Positions 18,047 through 36,868 of a DNA stretch of 64,000 nt are shown here, piece after piece. A program made the position numbers and the translations under genes. Origin of the DNA: Gammaproteobacteria bacterium. Its GTDB lineage: Bacteria > Pseudomonadota > Gammaproteobacteria > CAJXQU01. Under the pieces are notes generated by a model. It did not search any database. It was not told the DNA's origin and saw only the letters and a list, made by a program, of their open reading frames with translations. The stretch covers positions 201,414 through 265,413 of the forward strand of contig CBDDAG010000003.1 of assembly GCA_965224825.1 (NCBI GenBank). The letters are read 5' to 3'. Each line of letters starts with the position of its first letter. Position 1 is the first letter of the stretch.

Positions 18047-18064
18047 AATATTTCTCCGTACTTT

Positions 18065-19695: not shown

Positions 19696-21134
19696 GACAT
19701 TTCTCCTTTCAACATTTGTTCCATCATCAGGTCTTCAGTCCTATCAAAAGCATTCATACTTTTTGATATAGCAACTGCCTTGCCAACTAAGTCCTGAATT
19801 TGTGAAATTTTTAGATCATCGGGAATATTTTGCCCTTCACTGTAATACGTGACTGGTAATTTGTGTTCAACAATGGCCGATAAAACCGGTCCAAGTGAAG
19901 CCGATTCATCAACTTTTGTGATCATGCATCCACAAGGGTTGATCGGTTTAAATGCCTCAATCATCTGTTGTAATGCATCAGCCTGGACTGTTGCAGATAA
20001 CACCATATAAGCCTTTAGCATTGGTGTGCTGCTCTTGATCATTTTCAGGTTTTCGGCCAGTCTTTCATCCCGATAACTTAATCCTGCCGAATCAATAAGC
20101 ACCAATGGTTTTTCCAGAAAACCATCCAGTGCAGCTTGTAACTCTTGTTCAGAGCCAACGGCACGAACTGGAATTTTCAAGATACTGCCAAGATTCTTAA
20201 GTTGATCAAAAGCACCGAAGCGTTGTGAGTCTGTCGTAATCAAAGCAACACTTTCACGACCATGTCGTGCGGCATATTGAACAGCCAGTTTTGCGATCAG
20301 TGTCGTTTTACCAACACCAGCAGGGCCAACCAGTGCCACAACACCACCATTTGTTAGAATCGTGTCACCTGCGATCGGAACTTGTCTGGCAAACATTGCC
20401 AGTGCTCGATACCAGGCTTTACGATGACCAAGATCTTCCTGAATTCGATAAGCGATGTGACGAGCAACACCCGGCGTTAAACCCAGTGCCACTAATTTTC
20501 TTAATACGCCCGCTCGTACTGGTGATTGACGACTCATTTCACCCCAGGCAAAACCTGAGATCTGAGTCTCTACCAGAGACTTAAGCGAATGTAACTCCCT
20601 GCGCATGTCATCAATTAATGAATCCTGCGTCCAGACAACTTCCGATGATTGGCTCGGAATTTCTTGCTTTGGACTCTCGTGTTTGATTGATTTTTCTGCT
20701 TCAACAATCGTATCAGTTGCAGCGGTCAACTGCTGATCAAACGAATATTTTGCTGCACTGGATAATTCAACTTTGAAATCCAGATCGGGTAAATCCTCTG
20801 ACTCTACTTCCTGTGCTTGTGGACGAGCCGGTGTATATTCAAATTTTGGTTTCTTGATGGTTGGTGCCTGAGTGTTATTGATCAGCTCTTTAGCATGTTC
20901 AACATCCTGACTGACGGGCTGTTCAACAGTTTGATCAACATCAGGAAATGTATATTTTTTTGCTTCCGTTTTCGTCGGTTCCAACAGTGACTCGTCGTAA
21001 TCAACTGCGGCAGTAATCTCAATACCTTCAGGTACTTTTTTGTTTGATAAAATAACAGCATCCGGTCCGTGAAGATCCCGAACGAGTGCCAGCGCAGTGC
21101 GCATATCCTTGGCCACATGGCGACTTACATTCAT
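19692..21134 (-). CDS. flhF: flagellar biosynthesis SRP-type GTPase FlhF
   Basis: SRP-GTPase G domain (GPAGVGKTTLIAKLA, DSAG). Confidence 0.85.
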   Translation of the reverse strand: MNVSRHVAKDMRTALALVRDLHGPDAVILSNKKVPEGIEITAAVDYDESLLEPTKTEAKKYTFPDVDQTVEQPVSQDVEHAKELINNTQAPTIKKPKFEYTPARPQAQEVESEDLPDLDFKVELSSAAKYSFDQQLTAATDTIVEAEKSIKHESPKQEIPSQSSEVVWTQDSLIDDMRRELHSLKSLVETQISGFAWGEMSRQSPVRAGVLRKLVALGLTPGVARHIAYRIQEDLGHRKAWYRALAMFARQVPIAGDTILTNGGVVALVGPAGVGKTTLIAKLAVQYAARHGRESVALITTDSQRFGAFDQLKNLGSILKIPVRAVGSEQELQAALDGFLEKPLVLIDSAGLSYRDERLAENLKMIKSSTPMLKAYMVLSATVQADALQQMIEAFKPINPCGCMITKVDESASLGPVLSAIVEHKLPVTYYSEGQNIPDDLKISQIQDLVGKAVAISKSMNAFDRTEDLMMEQMLKGEMS

Positions 21135-21189
21135 GTGTTTCGCCTCCTTTTATTAATAGTCATCTTTATCATCCTATGTTTCCTAAATC

Positions 21190-23280
21190 CTATTGCCCGC
21201 CTACGCTGGCAATAATTGTGATCTGTTTGCTTTCCGGTATCTCACTAAATGCAAGAACGTTCATACTCGGAACGCTGTGCTTGATAAACCTAGCCAGGAA
21301 TTCCCTGAGATTATCTGGCACCAATAAAATCGCTGGTTGACCTGCCTGTTCCTGTTGATCACTAATGTCTTTCAGTGACTGCAACATCTGGCTCGCAAGT
21401 CCCGGTTCAAGTGCAACTCCGCCATCGCTCATGGCTTTTACTGACTGTTGCAATAACTGTTCCAGAGTTCCATCCAAAGTGATAACCGGTAGATCTTCGT
21501 TCATACCGTTGATTTGTTGGACGATCATGCGTCCCAACGCGATCCGAACAGCAGCAGTGAGAGCGACGGGATCCTGACTTTGTGGTGCGAATTCTGAAAG
21601 CACTTCGATAATCGTTCGCATGTCACGAATGGGTACTGATTCTCTTAAAAGGTTTTGCAGAACCTTGACGACTATCCCAAGTGGTAAAATTTTTGGAACC
21701 AGATCTTCGATCAGTTTCGGTGAGGTTTCCGCCAGCCGATCAAGTAACTGTTGAACTTCATCATGTCCCAGTAATTCGTGAGCATGATCCTGTAATGTCT
21801 GACTTAGATGAGTGGCTACGACGGTGCTGGAATCAACAACGGTGTAGCCCAATGATTGCGCCTGATCACGTTGTGGTGGATCAATCCACCATGCTTCCAG
21901 ACCAAAGACCGGATCATGTCCGGGCAGTCCATTGATCTCCCCATAAACCTGTCCAGGGTTGATCGCCAATTCTTTTTCCATATGGATCTCATCTTCATTG
22001 ATCGTCGCACCCATAAGACTAATCCGGTAAGACGATGGACCCAGATCAAGATTGTCTCGAATATGAACTGGCGGAACGAGAAAACCCAGTTCCTGAGATA
22101 ATTTTTTACGCACACCTTTCAGGCGACCCAATAATTCACCACCCTGATTTTTATCTACAAGAGGAATGAGTCGATAGCCTACTTCAAGACCAATGGCATC
22201 GATCGGCATCACATCATCCCAACTTAATTCTTTGTTCTCTGGTTCTGCTGGTGGAGGTGGTGCTTCTGCTTCAACACGTGCCAACGCTTCCTCTTCCTTT
22301 CTCTGTTTTGACATGTAATAAGCACCCGCTCCAGAAGCACCCGCAAGTGTCAGGAAAACAAGGTTTGGCATGCCAGGGATAATGCCCATCAATCCGATCA
22401 GACCAGCAGAAACACCCAGTGTTTTTGGATTGGCGAATAACTGTGTGACGATTTCTTCGCCCATATCCTGTTCAGTGGAAACACGGGTCACCATGATCGC
22501 GGTTGCAGTCGAAAGCAATAGCGAAGGTATTTGTGCGACCAGACCATCACCAATCGTCAGCAATGTGAAAACACGAGCAGCATCACCGATGCTCATTCCA
22601 TATTGCATTGCACCGATCGCCAGTCCACCAAGAAGGTTGATCACCAGAATAATAATACCGGCGATAGCATCACCTTTTACAAATTTGCTGGCACCATCCA
22701 TTGATCCATAAAAGTCTGCTTCCTGCGTGACTTCCTGACGACGTATTCGTGCTTCGTCCTGATCAATCACACCGGCATTCAGATCCGCATCGATGGCCAT
22801 TTGTTTGCCCGGCATTGCGTCTAAGGTAAACCGGGCGGTTACTTCTGAAATTCGACCAGCACCTTTTGTCACAACGACAAAGTTGATGATCACGAGGATC
22901 GCAAATACGACAAAACCGACGGTATAGTTTCCGCCAACAACAAAATCACCAAAGGCTTCGATAACTTTTCCGGCAGCTCCGGTGCCTTCTTTTCCGTGCA
23001 ATAAAACAACACGGGTCGAGGCGATGTTCAAACTAAGTCTTAGTAATGTCGAAATCAGCAGGATTGTCGGAAAAACGCCAAAATCCAGTGGCCGTCTGCT
23101 ATAAATCACCGCCAGTAATATGACCAGCGACAGAGAGATATTGAAGGTAAAAAGAAGATCGAGAAAAAACGTCGGCATTGGCATCATCATCATTGCCAAC
23201 ATCGATAGCAACAATAACGGAACACCAAGTCCGTATTTGTTTAGTTCTTTAAATCCACCTAAAGCTAATGGTTGCGCCAT
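21190..23280 (-). CDS. flhA: flagellar export apparatus protein FlhA
   Basis: 696 aa, N-terminal 8-TM domain plus cytoplasmic FlhA_C. Confidence 0.95.
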   Translation of the reverse strand: MAQPLALGGFKELNKYGLGVPLLLLSMLAMMMMPMPTFFLDLLFTFNISLSLVILLAVIYSRRPLDFGVFPTILLISTLLRLSLNIASTRVVLLHGKEGTGAAGKVIEAFGDFVVGGNYTVGFVVFAILVIINFVVVTKGAGRISEVTARFTLDAMPGKQMAIDADLNAGVIDQDEARIRRQEVTQEADFYGSMDGASKFVKGDAIAGIIILVINLLGGLAIGAMQYGMSIGDAARVFTLLTIGDGLVAQIPSLLLSTATAIMVTRVSTEQDMGEEIVTQLFANPKTLGVSAGLIGLMGIIPGMPNLVFLTLAGASGAGAYYMSKQRKEEEALARVEAEAPPPPAEPENKELSWDDVMPIDAIGLEVGYRLIPLVDKNQGGELLGRLKGVRKKLSQELGFLVPPVHIRDNLDLGPSSYRISLMGATINEDEIHMEKELAINPGQVYGEINGLPGHDPVFGLEAWWIDPPQRDQAQSLGYTVVDSSTVVATHLSQTLQDHAHELLGHDEVQQLLDRLAETSPKLIEDLVPKILPLGIVVKVLQNLLRESVPIRDMRTIIEVLSEFAPQSQDPVALTAAVRIALGRMIVQQINGMNEDLPVITLDGTLEQLLQQSVKAMSDGGVALEPGLASQMLQSLKDISDQQEQAGQPAILLVPDNLREFLARFIKHSVPSMNVLAFSEIPESKQITIIASVGGQ

Positions 23281-23292
23281 TTTACTAACTAT

Positions 23293-24420
23293 TTACCTTC
23301 TCAATTCATCGGGTATTGGGAGATCCTTTGGCACAGGTTGTATGTCAGTCGCTTTGGGATTTGCCTTAATCTGGAAGACATATGCCAACACTTGTGCCAC
23401 CGCTTTATACAAGCCGGCCGGAATTTCCTGGTTTATCTCAGTGCTGTAATACAAGGCTCGTGCCAACGGTGGCGTTTCGAGGATCGGAATGTGATTATTT
23501 TGCCCAATTTCACGAATTTTGAAGGCAATTTCGTCCGCACCTTTAGCCACAACTTTTGGCGCGCCACCGTTTTCCGTATCGTATTTTAGAGCGATAGAAA
23601 AGTGGGTCGGGTTGGTGACGATAACATCGGCTTTCGGCACTTCTTCCATCATTCTTTGCTGTGCCATTTCCTGCTGTTTCTGACGGACTTTTGCCTTCAC
23701 TTCCGGCATACCATCCGTATCTTTGTGTTCCTGCTTGATCTGCTCTCGAGTCATTTTGAGTTTTTTACTGTTCTGCCAAAGTTGCTGAGGAACATCGACA
23801 AAAACGATCAAAAGAGTTGCGGAACTGACCAGTAGAAATGTCCATGCAACCACTCCCGCAACATGCTCAAGACTACCGTTTAGATCGCCCTGACCTATGT
23901 TCATAATCTCGGGTATCTGTTTTTTGATCATAAAAAAAGCGGCCACTGCGATCACGGAAAACTTAAGCAATGTTTTAAATAATTCAACCAGACTATTCGG
24001 ACCAAAAACACGTTTAATCCCGCTGAGCGGATTCATTTTACTGGCTTTGAATTTGACCGCATCGATACTGAAATTCCACCCACTCAACAACATCGGCGAA
24101 ACCAGCGCGACAAAGACCATCACAACCACAAAGGGAAGCATGATCAGAACCATGTTATTGAGTGCGCCAAGAAAAATGGCTGGTAACTCTCTGGCGGCAA
24201 GATCAACATCCGCAGCACGCATAAAAAATGATTTCATGTTGTCGGAGATCCCGCTCACCATCCCTGGGCCTAGTGTCAACATGGAGATAGATGCTGCCAT
24301 CAACATCATCATGGTTGTCAGATCTTTTGATCGTGGAATGTCCCCTTTTTTGCGTGCGTCTTCTTTGCGCTTGGGGGTGGCTTCTTCGGTCCGATCCTGC
24401 CCAGTATCTTCTTCAGCCAT
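23293..24420 (-). CDS. flhB: flagellar export switch protein FlhB
   Basis: 375 aa with a conserved NPTH autocleavage motif (VIVTNPTHFSIAL). Confidence 0.9.
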   Translation of the reverse strand: MAEEDTGQDRTEEATPKRKEDARKKGDIPRSKDLTTMMMLMAASISMLTLGPGMVSGISDNMKSFFMRAADVDLAARELPAIFLGALNNMVLIMLPFVVVMVFVALVSPMLLSGWNFSIDAVKFKASKMNPLSGIKRVFGPNSLVELFKTLLKFSVIAVAAFFMIKKQIPEIMNIGQGDLNGSLEHVAGVVAWTFLLVSSATLLIVFVDVPQQLWQNSKKLKMTREQIKQEHKDTDGMPEVKAKVRQKQQEMAQQRMMEEVPKADVIVTNPTHFSIALKYDTENGGAPKVVAKGADEIAFKIREIGQNNHIPILETPPLARALYYSTEINQEIPAGLYKAVAQVLAYVFQIKANPKATDIQPVPKDLPIPDELRR

Positions 24421-24423
24421 GAG

Positions 24424-25206
24424 TTATGGACTCTCTATTCTTGCAAGACTTTTTGCATGCAAAAAAGCCTGTTCAAAAAGATCAGTAAAGTGACCTTGCA
24501 TATTCGATAAGGTCATTGAAATTATAAACATGCCCATGATCATCATGATCGGGAAACCCACTGCAAAAATATTTAATTGTGGTGCGGCACGGGTCATAAC
24601 ACCGAAGGAAAGGTTGACGATCATCATTGCGGCAATTGCAGGTAATGCGATCAGGACTGCACTGGAAAGTAACCATCCTCCCCACTGAACGACACCCCAT
24701 GCGTCGTCACGTGTGATCCCGTCTATTCCGATTGGCAAGGTTTTGAAACTATCGGTAACGACCTGAATCATGATCAAATGACCATTCAAACTGAAGAACA
24801 TCAAAGTTGCGAGAATGACATAGAACTGACTAACCACCGGAACCTGTCTGCCTGAAGCCGGATCAACCATCGCGGCAAAACCAAGTCCCATTTGCATCGC
24901 GATCACTTCTCCACCCACTTCCAGCACCATGAAAATTATTCTGATCACGATCCCCATTCCTGCTCCAATCATGACCTGTTGAACGGTGATCATCAGACCT
25001 GTTGCGGAAACAGGATCAATGTAGTCAAACGGGGGAACAGAAGGTGCAACAATAATCGCAATACTGACCGCCAGAATTAAGCGCAGCGTGACGGGAACGG
25101 TTCTGGTACCAATGAATGGTGCTGTCATCAATAAACCAGCTATGCGAAAAAAAGGCCATAACCAGGCTTCGATCAGTCCGATTAGCTGGGTATCTGTGAA
25201 TAACAC
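24424..25206 (-). CDS. fliR: flagellar export protein FliR
   Basis: 260 aa polytopic membrane protein; position in the fliPQR module. Confidence 0.85.
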   Translation of the reverse strand: MLFTDTQLIGLIEAWLWPFFRIAGLLMTAPFIGTRTVPVTLRLILAVSIAIIVAPSVPPFDYIDPVSATGLMITVQQVMIGAGMGIVIRIIFMVLEVGGEVIAMQMGLGFAAMVDPASGRQVPVVSQFYVILATLMFFSLNGHLIMIQVVTDSFKTLPIGIDGITRDDAWGVVQWGGWLLSSAVLIALPAIAAMMIVNLSFGVMTRAAPQLNIFAVGFPIMMIMGMFIISMTLSNMQGHFTDLFEQAFLHAKSLARIESP

Positions 25207-25208
25207 TT

Positions 25209-25481
25209 TTAACCTCCAACGACTGTTGGAATGGTTTCAAATATTTGCAGGGTAAAATCGGTTAGTAGTCTCAGCATCAACGGGCCACCAAGCGACAACA
25301 CCAGCATGGTAACAAGTAACTTGGGAATAAAACTTAAGGTCTGTTCATTGATCTGTGTAGCGGCCTGAAAGATACTGACCAGCAAGCCAACGGCCAGTGC
25401 AGGCAACAACATGATCATCATCAGCGTTGTTGCCAACTCTAATGCTCTGTGTCCAATGGTGATGGCAAATTCTGGCGTCAT
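25209..25481 (-). CDS. fliQ: flagellar export protein FliQ
   Basis: 90 aa, two TM helices. Confidence 0.9.
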
Positions 25482-26215
25482 GTGTAGAAACTCGCTGCCA
25501 GCGATCCAACAATCATTACCCAGCCATCTACCAGAACAAATAACATGATCTTGAACGGGAGTGAGATAATCATAGGGGACAACATCATCATACCCATGGA
25601 CATCAGAACACTGGCGACCACCAGATCAATCACCAGAAAAGGAATAAAAATAAGGAAGCCGATCTGGAAGGCTGTTTTTAATTCACTGGTTAAAAAAGAG
25701 GGGACTAAAATTGATAATGGCACATCTGCTGGCTGACTAAACTCTCCAGCTTTAGCAATCCCGGAAAACATTTTTATGTCCGTTTCTCTTGTCTGCGCCA
25801 TCATAAATTCGCGCAAGGGAAGACTGGCAACCTGCAATGCTTCCATCATGTCCATTTCCTCATTCAAATAAGGTGTCGCAGCATCTTCATAAATCTTGTC
25901 GAAGACGGGAGCCATGATGAAAAAAGTAAGAAATAATGCAATCCCGATCAGAATCTGACTGGAAGGCGTTTGTGCTGTTCCCAATGCCTGACGGAGAATG
26001 GCTAAAACAATAATGATCCGCGTAAAAGAGGTCATCATCAAAAATATTGCCGGTAACAAGGTCAATACTGTCATCAGTATCAACACTTGCAAGGTCAAGC
26101 TATAACTTTGTCCACCATCTTCATTCGTTGTTATGGTCAGCGCTTCCAGACCGCCGGCAGCCATGACTGACGATGAGAAAAACATCATGCTCACGATCAG
26201 AAAAATTCTTTTCAT
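25478..26215 (-). CDS. fliP: flagellar export protein FliP
   Basis: 245 aa with signal peptide; conserved FliP core. Confidence 0.9.
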
Positions 26216-26655
26216 GACTGATCCTTTGATTCTTCTTGTTGAGGATTCAGCCTGTTTTTTAACTGCTTTTGTAATAGTCCAGAAAAGCCATTTTCGGTTG
26301 TATTTTCTTGTGGGTCGATCACGGCTTCATCAAACGTTGCGATCGAAGAAATTCCACCTGGAGACACACCGATCAAGACCTGTTTCTCTCCAACCTGGAT
26401 AAGCAACACACGATCACGGGCGCTAACAGAAACGCCATCAATAACCTGCATTTTTCCGCCAGTATTAGAACGAAAGTTTCCCATGCGTTTTAATACAAAA
26501 ACGATCGCACCGAATAACAATAAAACTGCAGCCAGCCCGGCAAATACCTGGATAATACTTCCTGCCGAGAGTGGCTCCATGAGAGGTGCTTTTTTTTCTT
26601 CTGCAAGAACGACAGAAGGAATGATCAGGAATATAAAAAAGAAAAAATGTTTCAT
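26212..26655 (-). CDS. fliO: flagellar protein FliO
   Basis: 147 aa with single TM; position between fliN and fliP. Confidence 0.6.
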
Positions 26656-26665
26656 GTTTTTTTAT

Positions 26666-27214
26666 TTATTTGAGTTTCTTAACTCGTTCCTGAGCACTGA
26701 TTACATCTGTCAGACGAATACCAAATTTTTCATTGACGACCACGACTTCACCATGTGCAACCAACGTTCCATTAACCAGAACATCCAGTGGTTCACCAGC
26801 GAGTCGATCAAGTTCTACGACAGAACCCTGATTCAATTGCAAAAGGTTTCTGATTGCGATTTTTGTACTACCAATCTCAACAGCCAGCGTCACAGGAATA
26901 TCCAGAATCTGGTCAAGATTTCCACCATCGCCCCCTGCTCCGGCACCCGGATCAGCTGTTAATTGCTCAAATCCTGCAACACTAGCATCGACAGCAGCTT
27001 CGCCTTCAGCTTGCTCAGATAAAGCATCACCCCAATCGGCATCATCACCGCCAGCAGACTCACCTTCAGCCTGTTCAGCAAGTGCGTCACCCCAGTCAGC
27101 CTCTTCACCACCAGTAGCTTCACCTTCGGCTTGTTCAGCCATGGCATCACCCCAATCCGCATCTGCAGAAGCATCTTCCGATACCTCTTGATCTTCTGTT
27201 ACTTCGTCTGTCAT
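26666..27214 (-). CDS. fliN: flagellar motor switch protein FliN with N-terminal tandem 20-aa acidic repeats
   Basis: C-terminal SpoA domain (LDQILDIPVTLAVEIGSTKIAIRNLLQL...); N-terminal region has 3 copies of ADWGDALAEQAEGE..GG... Confidence 0.85.
   Translation of the reverse strand: MTDEVTEDQEVSEDASADADWGDAMAEQAEGEATGGEEADWGDALAEQAEGESAGGDDADWGDALSEQAEGEAAVDASVAGFEQLTADPGAGAGGDGGNLDQILDIPVTLAVEIGSTKIAIRNLLQLNQGSVVELDRLAGEPLDVLVNGTLVAHGEVVVVNEKFGIRLTDVISAQERVKKLK
27001..27180. repeat. three imperfect 60-bp tandem repeats inside fliN (encode the 20-aa ADWGDALAEQAEGE..GG.. repeats)
   Basis: The three 60-nt lines starting at 27001, 27061 and 27121 are clearly homologous (cacc-ttcagc-ctgttcagc...tcacccca-tc-gc). 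Confidence 0.7.
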
Positions 27215-27239
27215 TTGTTACTCCTAACTAATTGCTGTT

Positions 27240-28223
27240 CTAGTTGATGGAACCAAAAACCTCATCCACTTTCAAAGCACAATTTCCACGAGACTCTCCG
27301 TATCGAGCTTTGAAAACGGGTACACCATCAACTTTTGCTACTACATGATCTTCAATATCCACCGGAATAATGTCACCTTCCTGCATATCAAGAACATCAC
27401 GTAAAGTAATTTCTCTACTGGTTAAAATACTGTTTATTTCCACAGGTGCCGTCGCCAGCTCTTCGCGTAAAGACATCACCCAACGTTCATCCGTATCCGA
27501 TGCATCACTCTGCATACCGGCATCAAGCATTTCTCTGATCGGTTCGATGGTCGAATAAGGTAAAGCGATCTGTAACGAACCGCCTCCACCATCCAGATCA
27601 ACATGAAAATTAGAAACAATCATAACTTCACTGGGACTCACCACGTTTGCAAATTGTGGGTTCACTTCAGAATTCAAATACTGATAATCGATGTCCATAA
27701 CCGGCTTCCAGGCCTTTTGCATATCACCAAAAATCTCTTCCAGAACATTCATGACAATCCGCATTTCTGTCGCCGAAAAATCACGTCCCTCGATCTTGGT
27801 ATGAAAGCGTCCTGCACCACCGAAAAAATTATCCACCAATGAATAAACCAGTTTCGGATTCATTACGAAAAGTACTGTTCCGCGTAATGGGTTCATTTTC
27901 ACCATGTTCATATTTGAAGGCATAAACAAAGTGTGGATGTATTCTCCAAACTTCATCATTTCGATACCTTCAACCGAGATCTCAGGTGAACGTCTTAAAA
28001 TATTAAATAAGCTGACACGGAAATTTCGAGCAAATCGCTCATTGATCATCTCAAGTGTCGGTAGACGACCACGAACAATTCGATCCTGCGAATTAAAGTC
28101 ATAACCCTTCGCCGATCCGTCTTCAGCTTCCTCTTCCTGATTAGCGGTTTCGACATCACCGCCATCCACTCCATTTAAAAGAGCATCGATCTCATCCTGC
28201 GAAAGAATATCTGCGCCAGCCAT
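27240..28223 (-). CDS. fliM: flagellar motor switch protein FliM
   Basis: 327 aa with a CheY-P binding N-terminal LSQDEIDALL motif. Confidence 0.9.
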   Translation of the reverse strand: MAGADILSQDEIDALLNGVDGGDVETANQEEEAEDGSAKGYDFNSQDRIVRGRLPTLEMINERFARNFRVSLFNILRRSPEISVEGIEMMKFGEYIHTLFMPSNMNMVKMNPLRGTVLFVMNPKLVYSLVDNFFGGAGRFHTKIEGRDFSATEMRIVMNVLEEIFGDMQKAWKPVMDIDYQYLNSEVNPQFANVVSPSEVMIVSNFHVDLDGGGGSLQIALPYSTIEPIREMLDAGMQSDASDTDERWVMSLREELATAPVEINSILTSREITLRDVLDMQEGDIIPVDIEDHVVAKVDGVPVFKARYGESRGNCALKVDEVFGSIN

Positions 28224-28256
28224 ACTTTTTCCTTATCTTGTCCTTATGATCCGATT

Positions 28257-28793
28257 TTATTGCGTGACGAAAGATGTATATAAAAGGTCATCAACATTTT
28301 TTCCACCCATCGCCTCTTTCAAAACACTCTGAATTTCTCCAAGTGCCTCGGCTCGCATATTTTCTTTTCCATCTGCTGTTCCCAGATCTTCAAATTTCTG
28401 ACGACTGAAAACCATATTCACAACATGCTGGATCTTCGGAAGGTGTTTCTTAATATCATCCAGCCTGTCTTCATCTTCAGTCATCAAAGTCACTTCTGCT
28501 TTTAGAAAACGGGTTTTACCATCTGCCGTCTGATAATTAACCACGACTGGTTTTGCAAACGGTAGATAAGCAATATCCTTAGGCTCTGCCTCTTCTTCAG
28601 CAGCTTCTTCACCCTCAGCAACAGCCTCTTCATCACCGCCCATAAAGTACATCGCGCCACCAGCACCGCCACCAAGAACCAGCAAAGCACCAACGATCAT
28701 AATGATCAGCTTTTTCTTGCTACCACCAGACTTATTCTCTTCTGCGCCTTCTTCTGCACCTTCTTCAAGACCTTCTTCATTTTCATCAACCAT
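28257..28793 (-). CDS. fliL: flagellar basal body-associated protein FliL
   Basis: 178 aa, acidic N-terminus, single TM, FliL domain; first gene of the fliLMNOPQR operon. Confidence 0.75.
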   Translation of the reverse strand: MVDENEEGLEEGAEEGAEENKSGGSKKKLIIMIVGALLVLGGGAGGAMYFMGGDEEAVAEGEEAAEEEAEPKDIAYLPFAKPVVVNYQTADGKTRFLKAEVTLMTEDEDRLDDIKKHLPKIQHVVNMVFSRQKFEDLGTADGKENMRAEALGEIQSVLKEAMGGKNVDDLLYTSFVTQ

Positions 28794-29409: not shown

Positions 29410-30021
29410 ATGACGCTGAGCAATATCGTCGCACTATTTACCACCATGCTTGTTCTGGCAGCAATCCCCAGTATCAGTGTGTTGGCCGTCACAGCAAGAT
29501 CAGCTTCATCCGGATTTGTTCACGGTGTTTTTACAACCATTGGGATCGTGCTTGGCGATATTATTTTTATACTGATCGCTATTTTTGGTTTATCGATCCT
29601 TGCTGAATCTATGGGCAGTTTCTTTGTCCTGATCAAATATCTTGGAGGCACTTATCTGATCTGGCTGGGAATTTCTTTGTGGCGATCAAAACCACTAAAT
29701 ACGGAAACTGAAAGTGCAACAGAAACTTCCCTGTTATCCAGTTTCCTGACAGGACTTTTTATTACATTAGGCGATCAAAAAGCAATCCTGTTTTATCTTG
29801 GGTTCTTCCCTGCTTTTCTTGATCTATCGACACTCTCTTTTGCTGACACAAGTATCATTATAATGATCGCTATCATGACAGTTGGTGGTGTAAAACTTTG
29901 CTATGCATTCATGGCGAGTAGATCGAAATTGTTTATTAGCCCCATAGCTAAAAAAAGAATAGACATTATTGCGGGCGGTGTGATGATTGTTATTGGGATG
30001 GTTTTAATGATAAAGGCTTAA
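29410..30021 (+). CDS. LysE/RhtB family amino-acid exporter
   Basis: 203 aa, 6 TM helices; N-terminal pattern typical of RhtB/LysE translocators. Confidence 0.75.
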   Translation: MTLSNIVALFTTMLVLAAIPSISVLAVTARSASSGFVHGVFTTIGIVLGDIIFILIAIFGLSILAESMGSFFVLIKYLGGTYLIWLGISLWRSKPLNTETESATETSLLSSFLTGLFITLGDQKAILFYLGFFPAFLDLSTLSFADTSIIIMIAIMTVGGVKLCYAFMASRSKLFISPIAKKRIDIIAGGVMIVIGMVLMIKA

Positions 30022-30079
30022 AAAAAATGTATTAGCAAGAACTAAAGATATTACTTTTACACCAATCTCTAAATCTTTC

Positions 30080-30110
30080 AGAAAATAAAAAGCCCCCGCT
30101 GGGAGGGCTT
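30080..30110 (-). terminator. strong minus-strand intrinsic terminator (GCCCUCCCAGCGGGGGC + UUUUUAUUUU)
   Basis: The hairpin is better as minus-strand RNA (G-U wobble versus a C-A mismatch on plus) and the U-tract is present only on the minus strand. Confidence 0.6.
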
Positions 30111-30192
30111 TGGTCGCTTAGAAGCGTTGCCTACGAAATAACAATTTCATTGGTATGAAAAGCAAAATCAATAGACCTTAGTCGGTTACACT
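30082..30192 (-). ncRNA. candidate tracrRNA-like / repeat-derived small RNA (about 110 nt) divergent from cas9
   Basis: The 5' end is an exact copy of repeat nt 1-20 (plus-strand 30173-30192 is its reverse complement). It sits 8 nt downstream of a TATACT -10 and ends at the terminator at 30080-30110. The tail contains a CGCUU-CU-AAGCG hairpin. Pairing geometry with the array is non-canonical (see findings). Confidence 0.3.
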
Positions 30193-30200
30193 AAGAATTC

Positions 30201-30229
30201 AGTATAAAGGGAGAGCAACTCATGAGCAA
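30201..30229 (-). promoter_or_regulatory. sigma70-like promoter (TTGCTC-17nt-TATACT) on the minus strand, overlapping the cas9 RBS and start codon
   Basis: -10 TATACT = plus 30201-30206; -35 TTGCTC = plus 30224-30229; 17-nt spacer. The predicted TSS is at the first base of the half-repeat. Confidence 0.4.
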
Positions 30230-33200
30230 GAAAATCCTTGGCCTTGATTTAGGTAGTAATTCAATCGGATGGGCTTTACTTGATGAATCAAATGGTAAAG
30301 CAAGCGGAATTATTAATATTGGAAGTCGAATCTTTATTAAAGCGGTAGAAGAAAAAGTTCCGACACCAAAAAATGTAAAGCGCCGTGATATGCGGCTCGG
30401 TAGGCGTGTTATTCAACGCCGAGCAAGACGTAAACAGCGCATGTTAAATTATCTTGTGTCGCTCAATTTACTACCAAAAGAATTGCAAGGTCATACTCAA
30501 CCAGAAATTGAATTGAATAAATTAGGCGATCCTTATGAGTTGAGGATGAAAGGTTTATATGCACAGTTAACCCCGCATGAATTTGGCCGAGTATTACTTC
30601 ATTTTGTCTCAAGGCGTGGTTTTCTGAGCACCAAAAAACAAGTGGCAGGTGACTTAATTGATGATCCTGATACCGTTGCTTTTTTGAATGACCTGGATGA
30701 CAAGCCGACAAAGGACAAAGAAGAAGGCGCATTCAAAGCAGATATTAGCGAAGTAAGAAAATCTATAAATGAAGCTGGTGCAAGAACATTGGGTGAATAT
30801 CTGCACAAGTTAACGCAAGGTGAATGTAAACGGAATCGAAGCCATGAAGGTGGGCACCTGCGAACTGATAGAAAAATGTATCAAGATGAATTAGATCTGA
30901 TTTGGCAACAGCAAAGTCAGTATTTCATAGATCTTCCTGATGACTTTATGGCAAAAGATAAAGGCATCAAAAAGATCATATTTTATCAACGCCCACTAAA
31001 ACTTAAAAAAGACAGGATAGGAAAATGCTCGTTAGAACCTAAAAATAATCGTGCAGCACTGGCCTGGTTAGAGGTGCAACGTTTTCGTTATTTACAAGAT
31101 GTGAATAATTTACAATATTTTGAACGACATTCTGACCAATGGCTAAATATAAGTGATGAAGATAAAGGAAAGCTGACAGAATATTTTGAGCACCACTCTA
31201 AAATCACCATTACAGCATTAAAAAAACTGTTTGGTTTTGACAAACTCACCAAGATTAATTTAGAAGCTAAAAACCTTAAAGGCAACATTACTGCCTGTGA
31301 AATTAGATCAGTCTTAGGTGAGCAGTGGGATAATTATTCGGGTGAAGATCAAATCAAACTGGTTGAAGACATATTATCGATCAAGAAAAAATCAGCACTA
31401 AAAACAAGACTCATCAATCATTGGAATTTAGGTACATCAAAAGCCATAGAATTATGCCTACTTGAATTTGAACCTGGTCATAGCAATCTTTCTTTAAAAG
31501 CAATTAACAAGCTTCTACCTTTTTTACAGCAAGGTTTAATTTATAGCAGAAAAGATAAAGCAACAGGTGAGCTGGGTGCATTGCAAGCGGCGGGCTATGA
31601 TGATGAAATTCAAGATCAAGAAGACTGCGACAAATTAGGAAAACCGATAACCACCAGTAATCCAATTGTTAATAAAGGCATGCACGAACTGAAACGTGTT
31701 ATCAATGCCATTATTAAGGAATATGGCAAGCCGGATATTATTCGTATTGAAATGGCGCGCGATTTGGAGATGAATACCAAACGCTATAAAGAAAATGAGG
31801 CCAGACAGAAAAAAAATAAAGAAGAAAATGAAAAAGCAGTTAAAGCCTACAAGGATCTAAATTTAGGCAAATACCCTAGTTATGATGACAAAATAAAATA
31901 TCGTCTTTGGCTGGAGCAAGATCGCCGATGTGCCTACAGTAATAAACCTATTCCTCTTAATACGATATTCACCGCCGACGTTGAAATAGATCATGTGTTG
32001 CCATATAAAAAATCACTTGATGATTCTTATATGAACAAAGTCCTATGTTACACCTCAGAAAATCGTAACAAAGGCGATAGAACACCTAAAGATGCATGGG
32101 GCGGCAATGAGGACAAATGGACTCAAATTACCCATGCTATAAGCGGCTGGAAAGGTGTTGATTCTAAAGTAAAACGTTTTTTTCAAACAGAAACCGATCT
32201 CCAGCAACGTGATTTTATTTCATCACAACTCAATGATACGCGCTATATTTCAAAACTAGCCTTAGATTATGTTAAACAACTAGGCTGTGATGTTTCAGTA
32301 ACAAAAGGGTTTGTAGTTTCACAAATTCGTCACCAATGGGGATTGAATGATCTTATTGGCGAAACAGATAAAAAAGAGCGTACCGATCATCGTCATCATG
32401 CTATTGATGCGGTGGTGATCGCAGCAACTTCTCGTAGTTTATACACAAAAGCAGTGAGCGAAATCGAACGAGGCAAGCTGAAAATTAAACCGCCTTATCC
32501 TGAACTTAGAAATGAACTTGCCGAACAACTTAAACACACCATCATTTCACATGCCAGCCAACGAAAATTATCCGGTGGTTTGCATGAGGAAACGGGGGCA
32601 GGATATATTGAAAAGCATGGTGGTCTGGTTTACCGGAAAACCCTAAATCCAAATTTCAGCACTAAAAAAGCAAAAAGTATTGTTGATGACACTGTACAAA
32701 AAATAGTTCTCGAACATTTAGGAAATCATGATGACGATCCTAAAAAAGCTTTTGCTGATGGTTTTGCTGTTTATCACCAGGATGGTAAAACACCGATCAA
32801 ACGGGTACGTATTTTGCAGTCTAAAACTACACGTAAAAAACTTGACGCAAGCAAATTTGGTGTCAAAGACAAAGAAGGTAAGGTTTTCAAATGGCTTGCC
32901 TACGGTAATTTACATCACGTGGAAATTATCAGGAATAAGAAAACAGGAAAATATAGCGGTAAATTTGTAACAACGATGGAAGCCCATCACAGAGTGAAAG
33001 GTATTGGTATGCAAAAACAGAATATCATCAAAACGGATCATGGAAGTGATTATGAATTTTTGATGGCCTTGCATATTAATGATCTTGTGAGTATTGAAAA
33101 AGAAAAGACGCAAGTTTTTTATCGAGTTCAAAAACTAGACTCAGGTTCAAATAGAATGGTCTTGAGATTACACACTGCATCTACACTCAACAATAAAGAT

Positions 33201-33290
33201 GAAGAAATATATATTTCAATTAATGAAAAATCTTTTTCCAGTTTAAAACTCCAGAAACTTCAAATGAACGCTATAGGAAAGATCTTCTAG
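30222..33290 (+). CDS. cas9: Cas9 endonuclease, type II-C (1022 aa)
   Basis: RuvC-I ILGLDLGSNSIGWA (catalytic Asp); Arg-rich bridge helix RRDMRLGRRVIQRRARRKQR; RuvC-II IIRIEMARD; HNH DVEIDHVLPY...NKVLCYTSENRNKGDRTP; RuvC-III HHAIDAVVIA. Followed by cas1-cas2 with no csn2 or cas4. Confidence 0.95.
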   Translation: MSKKILGLDLGSNSIGWALLDESNGKASGIINIGSRIFIKAVEEKVPTPKNVKRRDMRLGRRVIQRRARRKQRMLNYLVSLNLLPKELQGHTQPEIELNKLGDPYELRMKGLYAQLTPHEFGRVLLHFVSRRGFLSTKKQVAGDLIDDPDTVAFLNDLDDKPTKDKEEGAFKADISEVRKSINEAGARTLGEYLHKLTQGECKRNRSHEGGHLRTDRKMYQDELDLIWQQQSQYFIDLPDDFMAKDKGIKKIIFYQRPLKLKKDRIGKCSLEPKNNRAALAWLEVQRFRYLQDVNNLQYFERHSDQWLNISDEDKGKLTEYFEHHSKITITALKKLFGFDKLTKINLEAKNLKGNITACEIRSVLGEQWDNYSGEDQIKLVEDILSIKKKSALKTRLINHWNLGTSKAIELCLLEFEPGHSNLSLKAINKLLPFLQQGLIYSRKDKATGELGALQAAGYDDEIQDQEDCDKLGKPITTSNPIVNKGMHELKRVINAIIKEYGKPDIIRIEMARDLEMNTKRYKENEARQKKNKEENEKAVKAYKDLNLGKYPSYDDKIKYRLWLEQDRRCAYSNKPIPLNTIFTADVEIDHVLPYKKSLDDSYMNKVLCYTSENRNKGDRTPKDAWGGNEDKWTQITHAISGWKGVDSKVKRFFQTETDLQQRDFISSQLNDTRYISKLALDYVKQLGCDVSVTKGFVVSQIRHQWGLNDLIGETDKKERTDHRHHAIDAVVIAATSRSLYTKAVSEIERGKLKIKPPYPELRNELAEQLKHTIISHASQRKLSGGLHEETGAGYIEKHGGLVYRKTLNPNFSTKKAKSIVDDTVQKIVLEHLGNHDDDPKKAFADGFAVYHQDGKTPIKRVRILQSKTTRKKLDASKFGVKDKEGKVFKWLAYGNLHHVEIIRNKKTGKYSGKFVTTMEAHHRVKGIGMQKQNIIKTDHGSDYEFLMALHINDLVSIEKEKTQVFYRVQKLDSGSNRMVLRLHTASTLNNKDEEIYISINEKSFSSLKLQKLQMNAIGKIF

Positions 33291-34192
33291 TGATAAAACG
33301 TATTATCGACATTAGCGAACAAGCCTATGTTCATATGAAACATAGGCAACTATTGATCGATAAAGAAGGAAAAACTGTTGGAAAAATTCCGATAGAAGAT
33401 CTTGGTGTATTAATCTTTCAGCATCCTGCAATCGTCGTCACTCAGGCCGTTATCATTGCATGTCAGGAAAACAATGTTGTAATTGTTTTTTGTGACTCCC
33501 GACATTTACCCTATTCTGTAGTTCTACCCATTAGTGAAGGACATAGTCTTCATACAAAAGTTTTGCGACAACAACTAGCGATCACTACACCAACAAAAAA
33601 ACGCTTGTGGCAACAGATCGTAAAATACAAAATCAGAGAACAGGCCAATACTTTGAGCCTGGCAGGTAAGAACAATAAAGCTTTATTGCGACTTGAGGGA
33701 AAAGTAAAGACAGGTGACTTACAAAATCATGAAGCACAGGCAGCTAAAGTTTATTGGCGCTTATTATTTGGTGATGAGTTTAGACGTGATGTAGATGCAG
33801 AAGGATTAAACAGTATCCTGAATTATGGTTATGCCATTATGCGTGCAATGGTTGCCAGAGCAATTGTTGGTAGTGGACTACACCCTGCTCTCGGTTTGCA
33901 TCACCGAAACCAATACAACGGTCTTTGCCTTGCTGATGATCTTATGGAGCCATTTCGCCCCTGGGTAGATCTTACCGTTTATGAGTTGTTCGATGAAAGC
34001 AAAACACTAGAAATTAATACTGAAATCAAACAAGTTCTACTAGGTATGTTAAGTAAAAAAGTGATCTGGAAGGGAGAAAGTATGCCACTAATGATTGCTT
34101 GTCATTCCTTGACTGCAGATCTCAAAAGAGCCTATCAAGACACGAAAGAAAAACTTTATTTTCCACAACTGGAAAACCGGATCGCTGCTTGA
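33290..34192 (+). CDS. cas1: CRISPR integrase Cas1 (GTG start overlapping the cas9 stop by 1 nt)
   Basis: 300 aa; typical type II Cas1 length and conserved acidic and His residues; operon position. Confidence 0.9.
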   Translation: MIKRIIDISEQAYVHMKHRQLLIDKEGKTVGKIPIEDLGVLIFQHPAIVVTQAVIIACQENNVVIVFCDSRHLPYSVVLPISEGHSLHTKVLRQQLAITTPTKKRLWQQIVKYKIREQANTLSLAGKNNKALLRLEGKVKTGDLQNHEAQAAKVYWRLLFGDEFRRDVDAEGLNSILNYGYAIMRAMVARAIVGSGLHPALGLHHRNQYNGLCLADDLMEPFRPWVDLTVYELFDESKTLEINTEIKQVLLGMLSKKVIWKGESMPLMIACHSLTADLKRAYQDTKEKLYFPQLENRIAA

Positions 34193-34212
34193 ATTTCGGC
34201 GGACTGAATACT

Positions 34213-34518
34213 ATGTGGGTAATCGTACTTTTTGATCTTCCTACGGATACAAAAGAAGCCAGAAAACAATATTCCAAATTCCGAAAGTTTTTACTTGATG
34301 ATGGTTTCACCATGATGCAGTATTCAGTTTATATGCGTCATAGTTCTAGCGAAGAAAACGCACAAGTTCATATCAAACGTGTAAAATCAACATTACCCGC
34401 AGATGGTGAAGTACGAGTTTTCAAAATAACCGATAAACAGTTTGGGAAAATAGAAGTTTTCTATGGTAAAAAACAAAAGCCTGTTGAAGAAACACCAGAA
34501 CAACTCCTGTTTTTCTGA
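34213..34518 (+). CDS. cas2: Cas2
   Basis: 101 aa MWVIVLFDLPTDTKEARKQYSKFRKFLLDDGF... (Cas2 fold) starting 21 nt after the cas1 stop. The ORF-track 34099 start is an out-of-frame overlap with cas1. Confidence 0.85.
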   Translation: MWVIVLFDLPTDTKEARKQYSKFRKFLLDDGFTMMQYSVYMRHSSSEENAQVHIKRVKSTLPADGEVRVFKITDKQFGKIEVFYGKKQKPVEETPEQLLFF

Positions 34519-34534
34519 TCGAAAAACAGGAGTT
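34502..34534. promoter_or_regulatory. perfect 14-bp inverted repeat spanning the cas2 stop codon, in the array leader
   Basis: AACTCCTGTTTTTC-TGATC-GAAAAACAGGAGTT; the cas2 TGA lies in the loop. Followed by a TATAAAT -10-like box (34541-34547) 21 nt before repeat 1. Confidence 0.5.
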
Positions 34535-34567
34535 TCCCCTTATAAATCAAACTACTCTATGCGCTGT

Positions 34568-34999
34568 AGTGTAACCGACTAAGGTCTACGCGCAATTCAC
34601 AACTAATTTTGCTGGTGACAATTCTGGGTTAGGAGTGTAACCGACTAAGGTCTACGCGCAATTCACAACCACCGAACGGATGGGGCTGCAAGTGTCGGGA
34701 GTGTAACCGACTAAGGTCTACGCGCAATTCACAACATGAAGATTACTGCAAACAGATGGTTGCAGAGTGTAACCGACTAAGGTCTACGCGCAATTCACAA
34801 CCCATTACTATAACGGGCTAATGTAATACATAGTGTAACCGACTAAGGTCTACGCGCAATTCACAACAATAATGACTCAATCTACGGTAACTCCCGTAGT
34901 GTAACCGACTAAGGTCTACGCGCAATTCACAACCTGCCAGTGATTGGTTCAGATATCCGCAGTAGTGTGACATGATCAAATGATTTAACCCCTTCCATA
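34568..34999 (+). CRISPR. CRISPR array: 6 identical 36-nt repeats (AGTGTAACCGACTAAGGTCTACGCGCAATTCACAAC), 30-nt spacers, plus a degenerate terminal repeat
   Basis: Repeats at 34568, 34634, 34700, 34766, 34832 and 34898 (period 66). Six unique spacers. Terminal unit 34964-34999 AGTGTGACATG... matches only about 15 of 36 positions. The reverse orientation reads GTTGTGAATTGCGCGTAGACCTTAGTCGGTTACACT (type II-C-like GTTGTG start). Confidence 0.95.
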
Positions 35000-35020
35000 A
35001 CGGAAGGGGTTTCTGTTTTT
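34989..35020 (+). terminator. plus-strand intrinsic terminator immediately after the array
   Basis: CCCCTTCC-ATAAC-GGAAGGGG followed by TTTCTGTTTTTATT. Confidence 0.7.
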
Positions 35021-35050: not shown

Positions 35051-36265
35051 TCAATATTTAGCACTCGACTCATCATAAAGAAGTCCTTTTTCTTTACTCT
35101 GTGACCGAATTGAACTAAAGATCTGAGCATCGAGTGAATCTTTATCAGCACCAGTTTCTTCCACTTTCTTTTTCAAAAAAGCATCTCGTTCCTCAGCGAT
35201 ACTTTGAATATTTTTTCTCAAGTCATCACGTTCTCTGGCTGCCTTTTCTACATATTCTTCCTGTGCTTTTGGTGACATAGCCTGCATGGGTTCTGGGAGT
35301 TCATTCTTTTCAATGTTGGAAAGATCAACACGTCCACTGGTGATAGCTTCGACCAGTTCACCTTCACCAAGGAAGTTTGCTTTACCACTTGTTGAGCTAT
35401 TAAATGCAGCACGACGAGCCTTTGATTCATTACTGGCTTCTCGATGAAGTTTATCTGTCACCACCAATTTATTGGCCTGTTTTAGTTTTGCTTCCTTGTC
35501 GCCATAGTAGATTCGCGTATCGTCCAATTTGGCAGATAACTCAGCCAGTTTTTTATCAAACGGTGTCGCAATAGCAACAGCATTTCCTGATTGCTCTACC
35601 TGAAAATAATTCCCCTGACCGAGGCTGGCAATTTCCTGCCAATTTGCTGTGGCGTTTTGATTTTGTCCGCATTGAATGGCATTAATAATAATGCCTTTTT
35701 GTTTTGCAATGGCCATCGTTTCCGGATATTTCACATCATCCTGATAATCCATATGGGGGGGCGCATCACCCACCAGAAAGATTACTTTGTAGGTTTGCTG
35801 ATCCTGATTCCATGACATTTTATGGACAGCGTCATAGAGTGCCTGATTGACACTCTCAGGACCATCACCACCGCCATCGGCTTTAAAGTCCATTAATTTC
35901 GAATACATGGAATCCAGATCGTTGGATAATTCCACGGTCTGAGTGACATAAGCATCACCGCGATCTCGATAGGCAACCAACCCCATTTTTATGTCCGGTG
36001 CATTTTGTGCCGAGGCCATAGTACTGGCAATCGACCAGATTTTTTCTTTCGCCGCATGGATCAGATCACCCATACTGCCTGTGGTATCAAGTACAAAAAC
36101 CACTTCGATCTTTGGATGCTCATTCGCCACCGGCATGAGAACGGCTGGATCGATAATTGGTGGCGTATTAGTTGGATTAGCGATCGCCTGTTTAGCGGCT
36201 GGAAAAAATGCAACAGTTGCAGCGGTTGCGGCGAAAATACTTATTGCGAATATTTTTTTGTTCAT
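35051..36265 (-). CDS. secreted von Willebrand factor A (VWA) domain protein with C-terminal charged coiled-coil tail
   Basis: AAGGAG RBS plus ATG at 36265 (MNKKIFAISIFAATAATVA signal). MIDAS DTTGSM; 404 aa. Confidence 0.7.
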   Translation of the reverse strand: MNKKIFAISIFAATAATVAFFPAAKQAIANPTNTPPIIDPAVLMPVANEHPKIEVVFVLDTTGSMGDLIHAAKEKIWSIASTMASAQNAPDIKMGLVAYRDRGDAYVTQTVELSNDLDSMYSKLMDFKADGGGDGPESVNQALYDAVHKMSWNQDQQTYKVIFLVGDAPPHMDYQDDVKYPETMAIAKQKGIIINAIQCGQNQNATANWQEIASLGQGNYFQVEQSGNAVAIATPFDKKLAELSAKLDDTRIYYGDKEAKLKQANKLVVTDKLHREASNESKARRAAFNSSTSGKANFLGEGELVEAITSGRVDLSNIEKNELPEPMQAMSPKAQEEYVEKAARERDDLRKNIQSIAEERDAFLKKKVEETGADKDSLDAQIFSSIRSQSKEKGLLYDESSAKY

Positions 36266-36293
36266 GATTAAATCTCCTTTTATGTTGTGCAAT

Positions 36294-36868
36294 TTAGTGT
36301 GTTGAAAGTTTTCGGACGGCGGCTTCTGCCTCACGATAAGCGCGTTGAAAATCGACATCGCTTGTGTCCAAGGTTGATCTGTTAGACGTAGATTGTTTGA
36401 TGCTGGTTGGTATCGCTACAAACAAAGCCTGTGTCAGAAAGAAACACCAGATGGTTAAAAATAGACTTCCCGTATAACTGGCTGCCCAGAATGCTGTCGC
36501 AACAGATAACCCGTTCAAACCAAGATCGGCTAGCGATGCAAACAAGCTGGAATAAAAATACATTGATCGAACTAACCAGATTGTGATCAGATGTATCAAT
36601 ACAAAAAGTGTAATAGACGGCCAGAAAAACCAGGTGGCCATAGCAATAACTGACCAACTGACGATGACTGTCAATCGACCTATACGTTCTTTGCTTCTGC
36701 TCAATAGATACAGGATATATCCAAGACTGAATCCACTGATCAATAACCTGATGATGAAACTATCAGAAAACATTGATGACAAAACAAAGTAGCCAACGCT
36801 GCCAATAAAACTACTGATCAGTGCAACGATTACACCTTCAAAAAAAGTGACACTTTTCGTTTTCATGA
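36294..36868 (-). CDS. polytopic membrane protein (5 TM), unknown function
   Basis: ATGA stop/start overlap with the upstream pspA-like gene (translational coupling). Confidence 0.5.

Follow-up and report, generated by a model that had tools for sequence, protein, structure and literature searches.

A probably complete and active type II-C CRISPR-Cas9 locus with an antisense array in an uncultured gammaproteobacterium

A compact CRISPR-Cas locus lies within a 64,000-nt chromosomal stretch of an uncultured gammaproteobacterium (assembly GCA_965224825.1, contig CBDDAG010000003.1, positions 201,414 to 265,413 of the forward strand). This stretch is hereafter called the window, and all positions are given in its coordinates unless another locus is named. 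Judged from its sequence, the locus is very likely a complete type II-C adaptive-immunity system that is probably active. It would combine four components, namely a divergent gene for the trans-activating CRISPR RNA (tracrRNA), the genes cas9-cas1-cas2, an acquisition leader of 49 bp, and an array that is read in the direction opposite to these genes. Pairing with the tracrRNA predicts that the functional CRISPR RNAs (crRNAs) are copied from the minus strand, against the direction of the cas operon. In its biology this is an ordinary phage-defence system that would not surprise a CRISPR specialist, and its Cas9, itself uncharacterised, belongs to a large clade of Cas9 proteins from the environment.

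The type II features comprise a Cas9 with a split RuvC domain and an inserted HNH domain, a tracrRNA with an anti-repeat, and an array adjacent to cas1-cas2. The operon holds cas9, cas1, and cas2 only, with neither the csn2 gene of subtype II-A nor the cas4 gene of subtype II-B. An earlier reading of the bare sequence (the original prediction) had placed a compact II-C locus at 30222-35020, and its extent and counts all hold. The accompanying absence of csn2 and cas4 also stands: a scan of all flanking open reading frames (ORFs) between 28966 and 40384 against NCBIfam, Pfam, or PADLOC returned 0 further cas genes, including csn2 and cas4. The description of the locus as intact was likewise borne out, but the tracrRNA that such a claim requires had gone unmentioned; it is present at 30085-30194 on the minus strand.

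Cas proteins and the tracrRNA gene

All three cas ORFs are full length. The cas9 gene (30222-33290, plus strand) encodes 1022 amino acids with intact RuvC and HNH domains. Its product matches the TIGR01865 Cas9 equivalog at 631 bits (cutoff 100) and the Pfam families HNH_4, RuvC_III, and Cas9_a, which answers the family check that had been suggested for it. An alignment with 21 relatives that are 66-82% identical shows no variation at D9, E510, H591, N614, H725, H726, or D729. In HMMER alignments with two solved chains, which we take to be GeoCas9 and Nme1Cas9, the catalytic residues coincide with the Asp of RuvC-I, the Glu of IxIExAR, the HNH motif (V)EIDH…N, and the HHAxDA motif. The original prediction had listed these motifs as retained, and no inactivating substitution at the catalytic residues appears in the alignments to relatives or to solved chains. 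By its catalytic motifs, the protein is probably nuclease-competent.

Among solved structures, the best relatives in a phmmer search are 8uza and 6jdq/6jdv (E = 1e-65 to 1e-68). The search output names no organisms; we take 8uza/8uzb to be GeoCas9 and 6jdq/6jdv to be Nme1Cas9. The closest solved-structure group, presumably GeoCas9 and Nme1/Nme2Cas9, spans E = 1e-61 to 1e-68. Entries that we assume to be the II-A proteins St1Cas9 (1e-44) and SaCas9 (1e-36) rank behind it, and SpyCas9 (II-A) and FnoCas9 (II-B) are apparently not among the 44 sequences at E <= 1e-5, again on our own assignment of unnamed entries. An AlphaFold2 model built from a 22-sequence alignment (predicted local distance difference test, pLDDT, 59; predicted template modelling score, pTM, 0.28) was too poor for a fold search.

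The cas1 gene (33290-34192, plus strand) matches the type II (NMENI subtype) family TIGR03639 at 294 bits. It starts with a GTG at 33290 that shares 1 base with the cas9 TAG stop at 33288-33290, which agrees with the tight packing and the 1-nt overlap already described for the locus. The cas2 gene is placed at 34213-34518 on the plus strand (101 aa from ATG 34213), with an alternative TTG at 34189 (109 aa). The longest ORF begins at TTG 34099 and is too long; because its family matches begin at residue 39, the true start should be ATG 34213 or TTG 34189. In two strains with an identical Cas9, discussed below as L081 and L082, the start is called so as to give 101 aa and 109 aa, respectively.

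The tracrRNA gene (about 108 nt, 30085-30194, minus strand) is delimited by a unique anti-repeat, covariation, a promoter box, and a terminator. From a predicted 5' end near 30192-30194, the minus strand runs through the anti-repeat upper stem (30192 to 30172), an internal-loop strand (30171 to 30164), the lower-stem strand GCUUUUCAUACC (30163 to 30152), a hairpin (30149 to 30134), a GG/CC-closed hairpin (30133 to 30112), and a GC-rich hairpin followed by a U-run (30111 to 30089), which was called as a terminator. On the plus strand, 30172-30192 reads TAGACCTTAGTCGGTTACACT, which is exactly reverse-complementary to nucleotides 1-21 of the plus-strand repeat. Outside the array, this 21-nt anti-repeat is the only copy in the window. 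The minus-strand -10 box TATACT (30201-30206) stands 8 nt upstream of the AGUG with which the anti-repeat starts. It sits within the cas9 5' leader and adjoins the cas9 Shine-Dalgarno sequence AAGGGAGAG.

This arrangement recurs among relatives. Of 38 related loci, 34 carry a matching minus-strand element that precedes the cas9 ATG by about 30 nt, and in about 30 related loci TATAAT or TATACT, often after TGTG, stands 7-9 nt ahead of the anti-repeat. Three more loci (L017, L019, and L021, around 3584-3697; SUP05/Ruthia-like) carry the tracrRNA on the same strand, displaced 300-420 nt further upstream. The anti-repeat changes with each locus's own repeat, as in CCAACTATAGCC or ACTCACCAAGG, and the tail of about 65 nt is near-identical across relatives.

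Covariation was assessed by joining the minus-strand repeat of each locus to its own tracrRNA and aligning the 29 loci. The consensus has 49 pairs, with 97.4% of their cells paired and compensatory change in 20 of them; none of 500 shuffles reached these values, and slid registers were 40-46% paired. The consensus fold begins with a lower stem between repeat nucleotides 1-7 and tracrRNA UUCAUAC, continues through a short GC clamp and an internal loop, and ends in a 23-bp upper stem. The tail then forms a small hairpin (GAAAU…AUUUC, varying to GGAAU…UUCC), a second hairpin, and the terminator. In the window, the tracrRNA pairs with the entire minus-strand repeat and the upper stem is a perfect 21 bp. 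Neither the tracrRNA nor the repeat matched any tracrRNA or CRISPR direct-repeat (CRISPR-DR) family in Rfam, even at E <= 1. A plus-strand tracrRNA running into cas9 was considered and discarded, because such an RNA would lack the terminator, the conserved -10 box, and the G-U pairs that the minus strand offers.

Acquisition leader, spacer turnover, and spacer targets

The array itself (34568-34933) consists of six identical 36-nt repeats and five internal 30-nt spacers with a period of 66, the repeat and spacer lengths being those already described; its minus-strand assignment rests on tracrRNA complementarity and on fixed G-U pairs. Counting the spacer at the trailer end, there are six spacers, all unique. 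The reported lack of a self-match is confirmed for matches of at least 18 nt between the spacers and the rest of the window. Apart from the tracrRNA anti-repeat, no repeat-like sequence occurs elsewhere in the window, where shuffles put the matches to repeat halves expected by chance at 0.00-0.01. The trailer end (34934-34999, minus strand) holds the oldest spacer (34934-34963) and a degenerate terminal repeat (34964-34999). This seventh repeat, at 34964, retains 7 of the first 8 nt, and only AGTGTGAC is recognisable in it. The terminal repeats of 11 relatives likewise retain just the half that bears a -10-like box, which in the window reads CACACT rather than TACACT in the minus-strand sense.

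The acquisition-side leader, recognised by conservation and strain comparison, is the 49-bp segment from the cas2 stop to repeat 1 (34519-34567). Its conservation was measured over 53 distinct related loci. The distance between the cas2 stop and repeat 1 is conserved, and a T-run at the cas2 3' end lies at -58 to -52 from repeat 1. The motif AAATCAA (34544-34550, -24 to -18) has its C at -20 in 79% of the loci and its A at -19 in 92%. A TT at -13/-12 is found in 91-92% of them, with CT at this place in the window (34555-34556). Both the AAATCAA and the TT motifs may mark an integration site or a host-factor site. A 14-bp hairpin (34502-34534) also spans the boundary: its 5' arm is formed by the last Cas2 codons, its loop holds the cas2 stop codon, and its 3' arm falls in the leader. 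Equivalent hairpins that differ in sequence reach z < -2 in 37 of the 53 loci. Because no T-run flanks the hairpin, it is not a canonical terminator.

Two strains show how the array changes. Locus L081 (ENA ERZ25073254) encodes a 100% identical Cas9, has an identical 49-bp leader and junction, and carries 20 spacers (L081 7347-8664). It lies between the same flanks as the window, with fliM, fliL, hsp15, and lysE on one side and the VWA gene on the other. The sole spacer common to L081 and the window is the cas2-distal one, adjoining the degenerate repeat. Locus L082 (5162-5490), with a 100% identical Cas9 and the same leader, shares the first five cas2-proximal spacers of L081 with one single-nucleotide polymorphism. 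Because strains differ in the cas2-proximal spacers and keep the cas2-distal one, the 49-bp segment qualifies as the acquisition leader. New spacers thus enter beside cas2, and the cas2-distal spacer is the ancestral one. The comparison indicates strain-level spacer turnover or recent acquisition, and by this token a system that is likely turning over spacers in nature.

Targets proved harder to find. Together, the arrays of the window and L081 provide 25 spacers for one and the same Cas9, and none has an exact protospacer in INPHARED, PLSDB, IMG/VR, or the JGI metagenomes. A chance 31/35-nt match was all that BLAST of both arrays returned from the phages of INPHARED and the plasmids of PLSDB, and when exact 22-mers of eight spacers were searched against IMG/VR, spacer 2 alone matched. 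This spacer (34670-34699) matches three IMG/VR viral contigs, L083 (5931-5960), L084, and L085, at 26-28 of its 30 nt. The mismatches fall at the predicted PAM-distal end (PAM, protospacer-adjacent motif), a result biased by the design of the search. The spacer covers the codons for PPNGWGCKC, which are conserved in an ORF judged by eye to be a putative Mu-F/SPP1-gp7-type head-morphogenesis gene, and the matches are diverged homologues of the real target, with flanks too inconsistent for a PAM to be read from them. Searches of the JGI metagenomes with the 30-mer and a 26-mer of spacer 2 returned nothing, the arrays of L079 and L035 gave nothing against the phage collection, and none of the collected loci held a meaningful match to the 857 spacers taken from relatives. 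Hence the proposal that spacer searches would reveal the PAM did not work out, despite phage and plasmid BLAST and the IMG/VR and JGI searches. Close Nme orthologues differ in their PAM (PMC9433092), and for this reason none was transferred from relatives.

The shortage of targets invites two other explanations. One is that the system is active but serves mainly a purpose other than phage defence, either curbing natural transformation, for which N. meningitidis is the model, or regulating genes through Cas9. Such roles have precedent in II-C and II-B systems (PMC5965381, PMC12477760, PMC13431127), and most spacers here have no identifiable phage target. However, no spacer or repeat-like match occurs in the rest of the window, the only matching spacer points to a putative phage head-morphogenesis gene, and few matches are to be expected for an uncultured host with unsampled phages. 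We therefore regard a main role outside defence as improbable. The other explanation is a silent or decaying remnant, in which the genes look intact and neither acquisition nor interference takes place. It would account for the short array of six spacers and for the lack of an exact protospacer in any collection searched, and one relative (L071) does have a cas9 split by an insertion sequence (IS). Against it, the window has three full-length ORFs, invariant catalytic residues, six identical repeats, and a tracrRNA with intact promoter, anti-repeat, and terminator, and two strains with identical Cas9 differ in all spacers but the oldest, a sign of recent acquisition or turnover. Decay is accordingly very improbable, and a functioning phage-defence locus remains the preferred reading.

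crRNA strand and candidate promoters

The orientation of the array follows from the guide RNA. In the minus-strand sense, the functional repeat reads GTTGTGAATTGCGCGTAGACCTTAGTCGGTTACACT, or GUUGUGAAUUGCGCGUAGACCUUAGUCGGUUACACU as RNA. In the tracrRNA, the anti-repeat runs in the sense of the plus-strand repeat, so that only minus-strand array transcripts can pair with it. In the covariation alignment, several pairs are G-U in all or many loci, column 4-78 being G-U in 29 of 29. On the other strand these fixed pairs would be C-A, which again assigns the crRNA to the minus strand. It follows that the guides would be the reverse complements of the plus-strand spacers and that the PAM would adjoin the plus-strand 5' end of each spacer. 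The original prediction had noted a minimal 49-bp leader: the length is exact and the element real and conserved, but with a minus-strand array it is the acquisition end, located at the 3' end of crRNA transcription, and not the crRNA promoter.

The same geometry is known from two model systems. In N. meningitidis and C. jejuni, array transcription runs against that of the cas operon, and Chylinski et al. reported that predicting orientation from repeat degeneracy gave the wrong answer for both (PMC3737331). In Neisseria and Campylobacter, promoters embedded in the repeats start transcription at about the 6th nucleotide of each spacer (PMC5965381, PMC12477760), and in N. meningitidis the leader flanks the end where new spacers arrive while crRNAs start inside the repeats (PMC12477760). 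The conventional polarity, in which a promoter in the 49-bp leader would drive a plus-strand array with the crRNA repeat AGUGUAACC…, has in its favour a leader at the cas2 side with a degenerate repeat at the far end, which is the usual start-side signature in other CRISPR types, and a plus-strand terminator after the array, but it is highly improbable, given that the sole anti-repeat in the window lies on a minus-strand gene with its own -10 box and terminator whose RNA, being of the same sense as the plus-strand repeat, could not pair with it, that only a minus-strand crRNA accommodates the G-U pairs and the lower stem, that no promoter was called in the 49-bp leader, and that the same misleading signature was reported for N. 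meningitidis and C. jejuni (PMC3737331). With a minus-strand array as the preferred arrangement, this locus offers a further clear case in which II-C array orientation is not readable from leader position or repeat degeneracy.

Transcription from the minus strand calls attention to the repeat itself. Its 3' end is a -10-like TACACT, with TTGCGC 16 nt upstream. Over 42 repeat variants, T31, A32, A34, and T36 are invariant and positions 33 and 35 vary. T9, T10, and G11 are also invariant, two of them being unpaired in the duplex, and the neighbouring paired positions covary. The resulting pattern, TTGCnn-N16-TAnAnT, is a weak sigma-70 pattern. By analogy with the Neisseria and Campylobacter repeats, we lean towards crRNA transcription from promoter-like boxes inside each repeat.

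Under this model, the TTGCGC-N16-TACACT promoter in each repeat would start short crRNAs a few nucleotides inside each spacer. Each crRNA would open with a guide of about 22-25 nt, reverse-complementary to the plus-strand spacer, and continue with GUUGUGAAUUGC…. It would anneal to the tracrRNA, be trimmed optionally by RNase III, and load into Cas9, whose HNH and RuvC domains would cut PAM-flanked DNA, with the PAM 3' of the protospacer in the minus-strand sense. Cas1-Cas2, probably with help from Cas9, would insert new spacers where the leader meets the first repeat, with the conserved leader motifs as guides.

Several observations weigh against parts of this reading. The generic consensus promoter scan did not call the repeat boxes; the -10-like box is without the TG extension seen in Neisseria, the -35-like hexamer matches at 3 of 6 positions, and the invariant repeat positions could instead be contacts of Cas9 or of Cas1-Cas2. 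Given the CACACT form of the trailer box, the oldest spacer may be poorly expressed. The window repeat carries GCGCG at positions 11-15 in the minus-strand sense, and its C14, unique among the 42 variants, breaks one duplex pair that is G-U or G-C elsewhere and so enlarges the internal loop. The 5' ends of both the tracrRNA and the crRNA are predictions, as is interference activity, and the subtype placement is based on locus architecture and the nearest solved relatives.

A related arrangement lies in front of cas9. Inside the anti-repeat, on the plus strand, is a second TACACT box (30187-30192), the same box that ends the repeats, 29 nt before the cas9 ATG. It stands back to back with the minus-strand TATACT box of the tracrRNA (30201-30206), 8 nt apart, and this spacing is conserved in about 30 relatives. 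The tracrRNA and cas9 promoters could be interlocked, with cas9 transcribed from a repeat-type promoter as part of a compact regulatory and integration architecture, although we hold this to be unlikely. If both boxes were used, RNA polymerases would compete, or the 5' RNA ends would overlap in antisense, and the dosage of Cas9 and tracrRNA would be coupled. If true, the interlocked promoters, the cas2-stop hairpin, and the AAATCAA motif would amount to an architecture not yet described for type II-C.

Genomic setting, relatives, and known systems

The window is chromosomal. Upstream is a flagellar and chemotaxis cluster with flhA, flhF, cheA, fliM, and fliL, and downstream are housekeeping genes such as gpmI and ubiB. 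The flanking ORFs were identified as Hsp15, LysE, VWA, one without assignment, PspA-like, a response regulator, and a histidine kinase; those past the array (VWA, the unassigned one, PspA-like, and the two-component pair) are non-cas genes. In the gap that separates the array from the convergent VWA gene (35051-36358, minus strand), a GC-rich hairpin with a T-run at 34987-35011 on the plus strand was called as a terminator, placed for read-through from the cas operon. GC content over cas9 and cas1 (30001-34000) is 0.37-0.38, compared with 0.41-0.46 in the rest of the window. The low GC of the cas genes, together with the spread of the clade across phyla, fits horizontal acquisition. As side observations, the GC and AT skews flip sign over 30001-34000. 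The window also holds a gene for a di-haem cytochrome c peroxidase (3273-5036), a tRNA-Ser(GGA) (9249-9340), the long minus-strand flagellar and chemotaxis cluster just mentioned (cheA, flhF, flhA, fliM, fliL; 10578-28793), and a BatA/BatB-like VWA gene cluster (51634-57487).

Relatives of this Cas9 are numerous. The exact sequence is already in NCBI/ENA, in a 1.04-Mb contig, and 3609 of 8000 candidate proteins scored are homologues at E <= 1e-20, the best 120 of these 3609 being 65-81% identical. When a single genome was scanned for each species, 133 genomes proved to encode a Cas9 relative; in the best 80 of the 133 the protein is 45-77% identical, and a few metagenome-assembled genomes (MAGs) from outside the gammaproteobacteria are among them. 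The named relatives are environmental and mostly marine, including Cycloclasticus, Thioglobus/SUP05, Methylococcales, and sponge and mussel symbionts. About 55 related loci have repeats of this family, located and oriented as in the window, and the first 12 nt of the repeat, GUUGUGAAUUGC, also open the characterised Bacteroidetes II-C repeat of Jejuia pallidilutea Cas9; the repeat can therefore not be called unusual, as it had been. The clade repeat has in fact been tabulated for a sponge symbiont, as the Gsub CRISPR array (PMC5361782), which is our locus L019. A literature search found no experimental work on any member of the clade, and the clade guide RNA is absent from the supplements of a 79-orthologue catalogue.

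Individual relatives show further variation. In the gammaproteobacterial MAG locus L071 (4001-8329), a 1.2-kb insertion splits cas9 into ORFs of 359 aa and 669 aa. The insertion encodes a transposase with helix-turn-helix (HTH) and rve-integrase domains, which points to an IS-inactivated cas9. Locus L025 carries a 20-repeat array (20-1654) upstream of the tracrRNA and cas9.

The suggestion that this Cas9 is a potential new editor is possible but generic, as the protein is not rare, given the exact database entry and the 3609 homologues. Its practical value is modest and lies in a specified guide-RNA design for a 1022-aa Cas9, covering the crRNA strand, the predicted tracrRNA ends, and the duplex geometry. 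The predicted single-guide RNA (sgRNA) would read 5'-N22-24-GUUGUGAAUUGCGCGUAGACC-GAAA-GGUCUAUUGAUUUUGCUUUUCAUACCAAUGAAAUUGUUAUUUCGUAGGCAACGCUUCUAAGCGACCAAAGCCCUCCCAGCGGGGGCUUUUU-3'. The clade as a whole is large, apparently untouched by experiment, and equipped with a well-conserved tracrRNA.

Among known systems, the II-C locus of N. meningitidis (Nme1Cas9/Nme2Cas9) shares the gene order cas9-cas1-cas2 with no fourth gene, 36-nt repeats that start with GTTGT and end in a TAnAnT box, and 30-nt spacers. It also shares an array opposite to the cas operon, with the leader and new spacers at the transcription-distal end (PMC3737331; PMC12477760). Nme1Cas9 is colinear with the window protein and has the same catalytic motifs (phmmer E ~3e-66, with residues 5-743 and 769-1020 aligned). 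However, the two are distant (about 227 bits at full length), the window Cas9 is the shorter one by 60 aa, no sequence relationship exists in the interior of the repeat or in the tail of the tracrRNA, and the -10-like box has no TG extension.

GeoCas9 of Geobacillus stearothermophilus, another II-C protein (which we take 8uza/8uzb to be), is among the best solved-structure matches (E = 1.6e-67); it likewise shares the motifs of RuvC-I, RuvC-II, HNH, and RuvC-III and is of comparable size. In contrast, its alignment falls into three stretches and is weak in the C-terminal, PAM-interacting part; its host is a thermophilic Firmicute and its guide RNA is different.

The II-C system of C. jejuni (CjCas9) has the same minimal cas operon, 36-nt repeats, and an antisense array with repeat promoters (PMC3737331, PMC5965381), but the protein similarity is much weaker (E = 5e-34) and is confined to the N-terminal half. 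The family of this locus is instead the environmental, largely marine, proteobacterial Cas9 clade represented by Cycloclasticus, Methylococcales, SUP05/Thioglobus, and sponge symbionts, with which it shares 45-81% Cas9 identity, the repeat family, the tracrRNA and its position, and a leader of about 50 bp.

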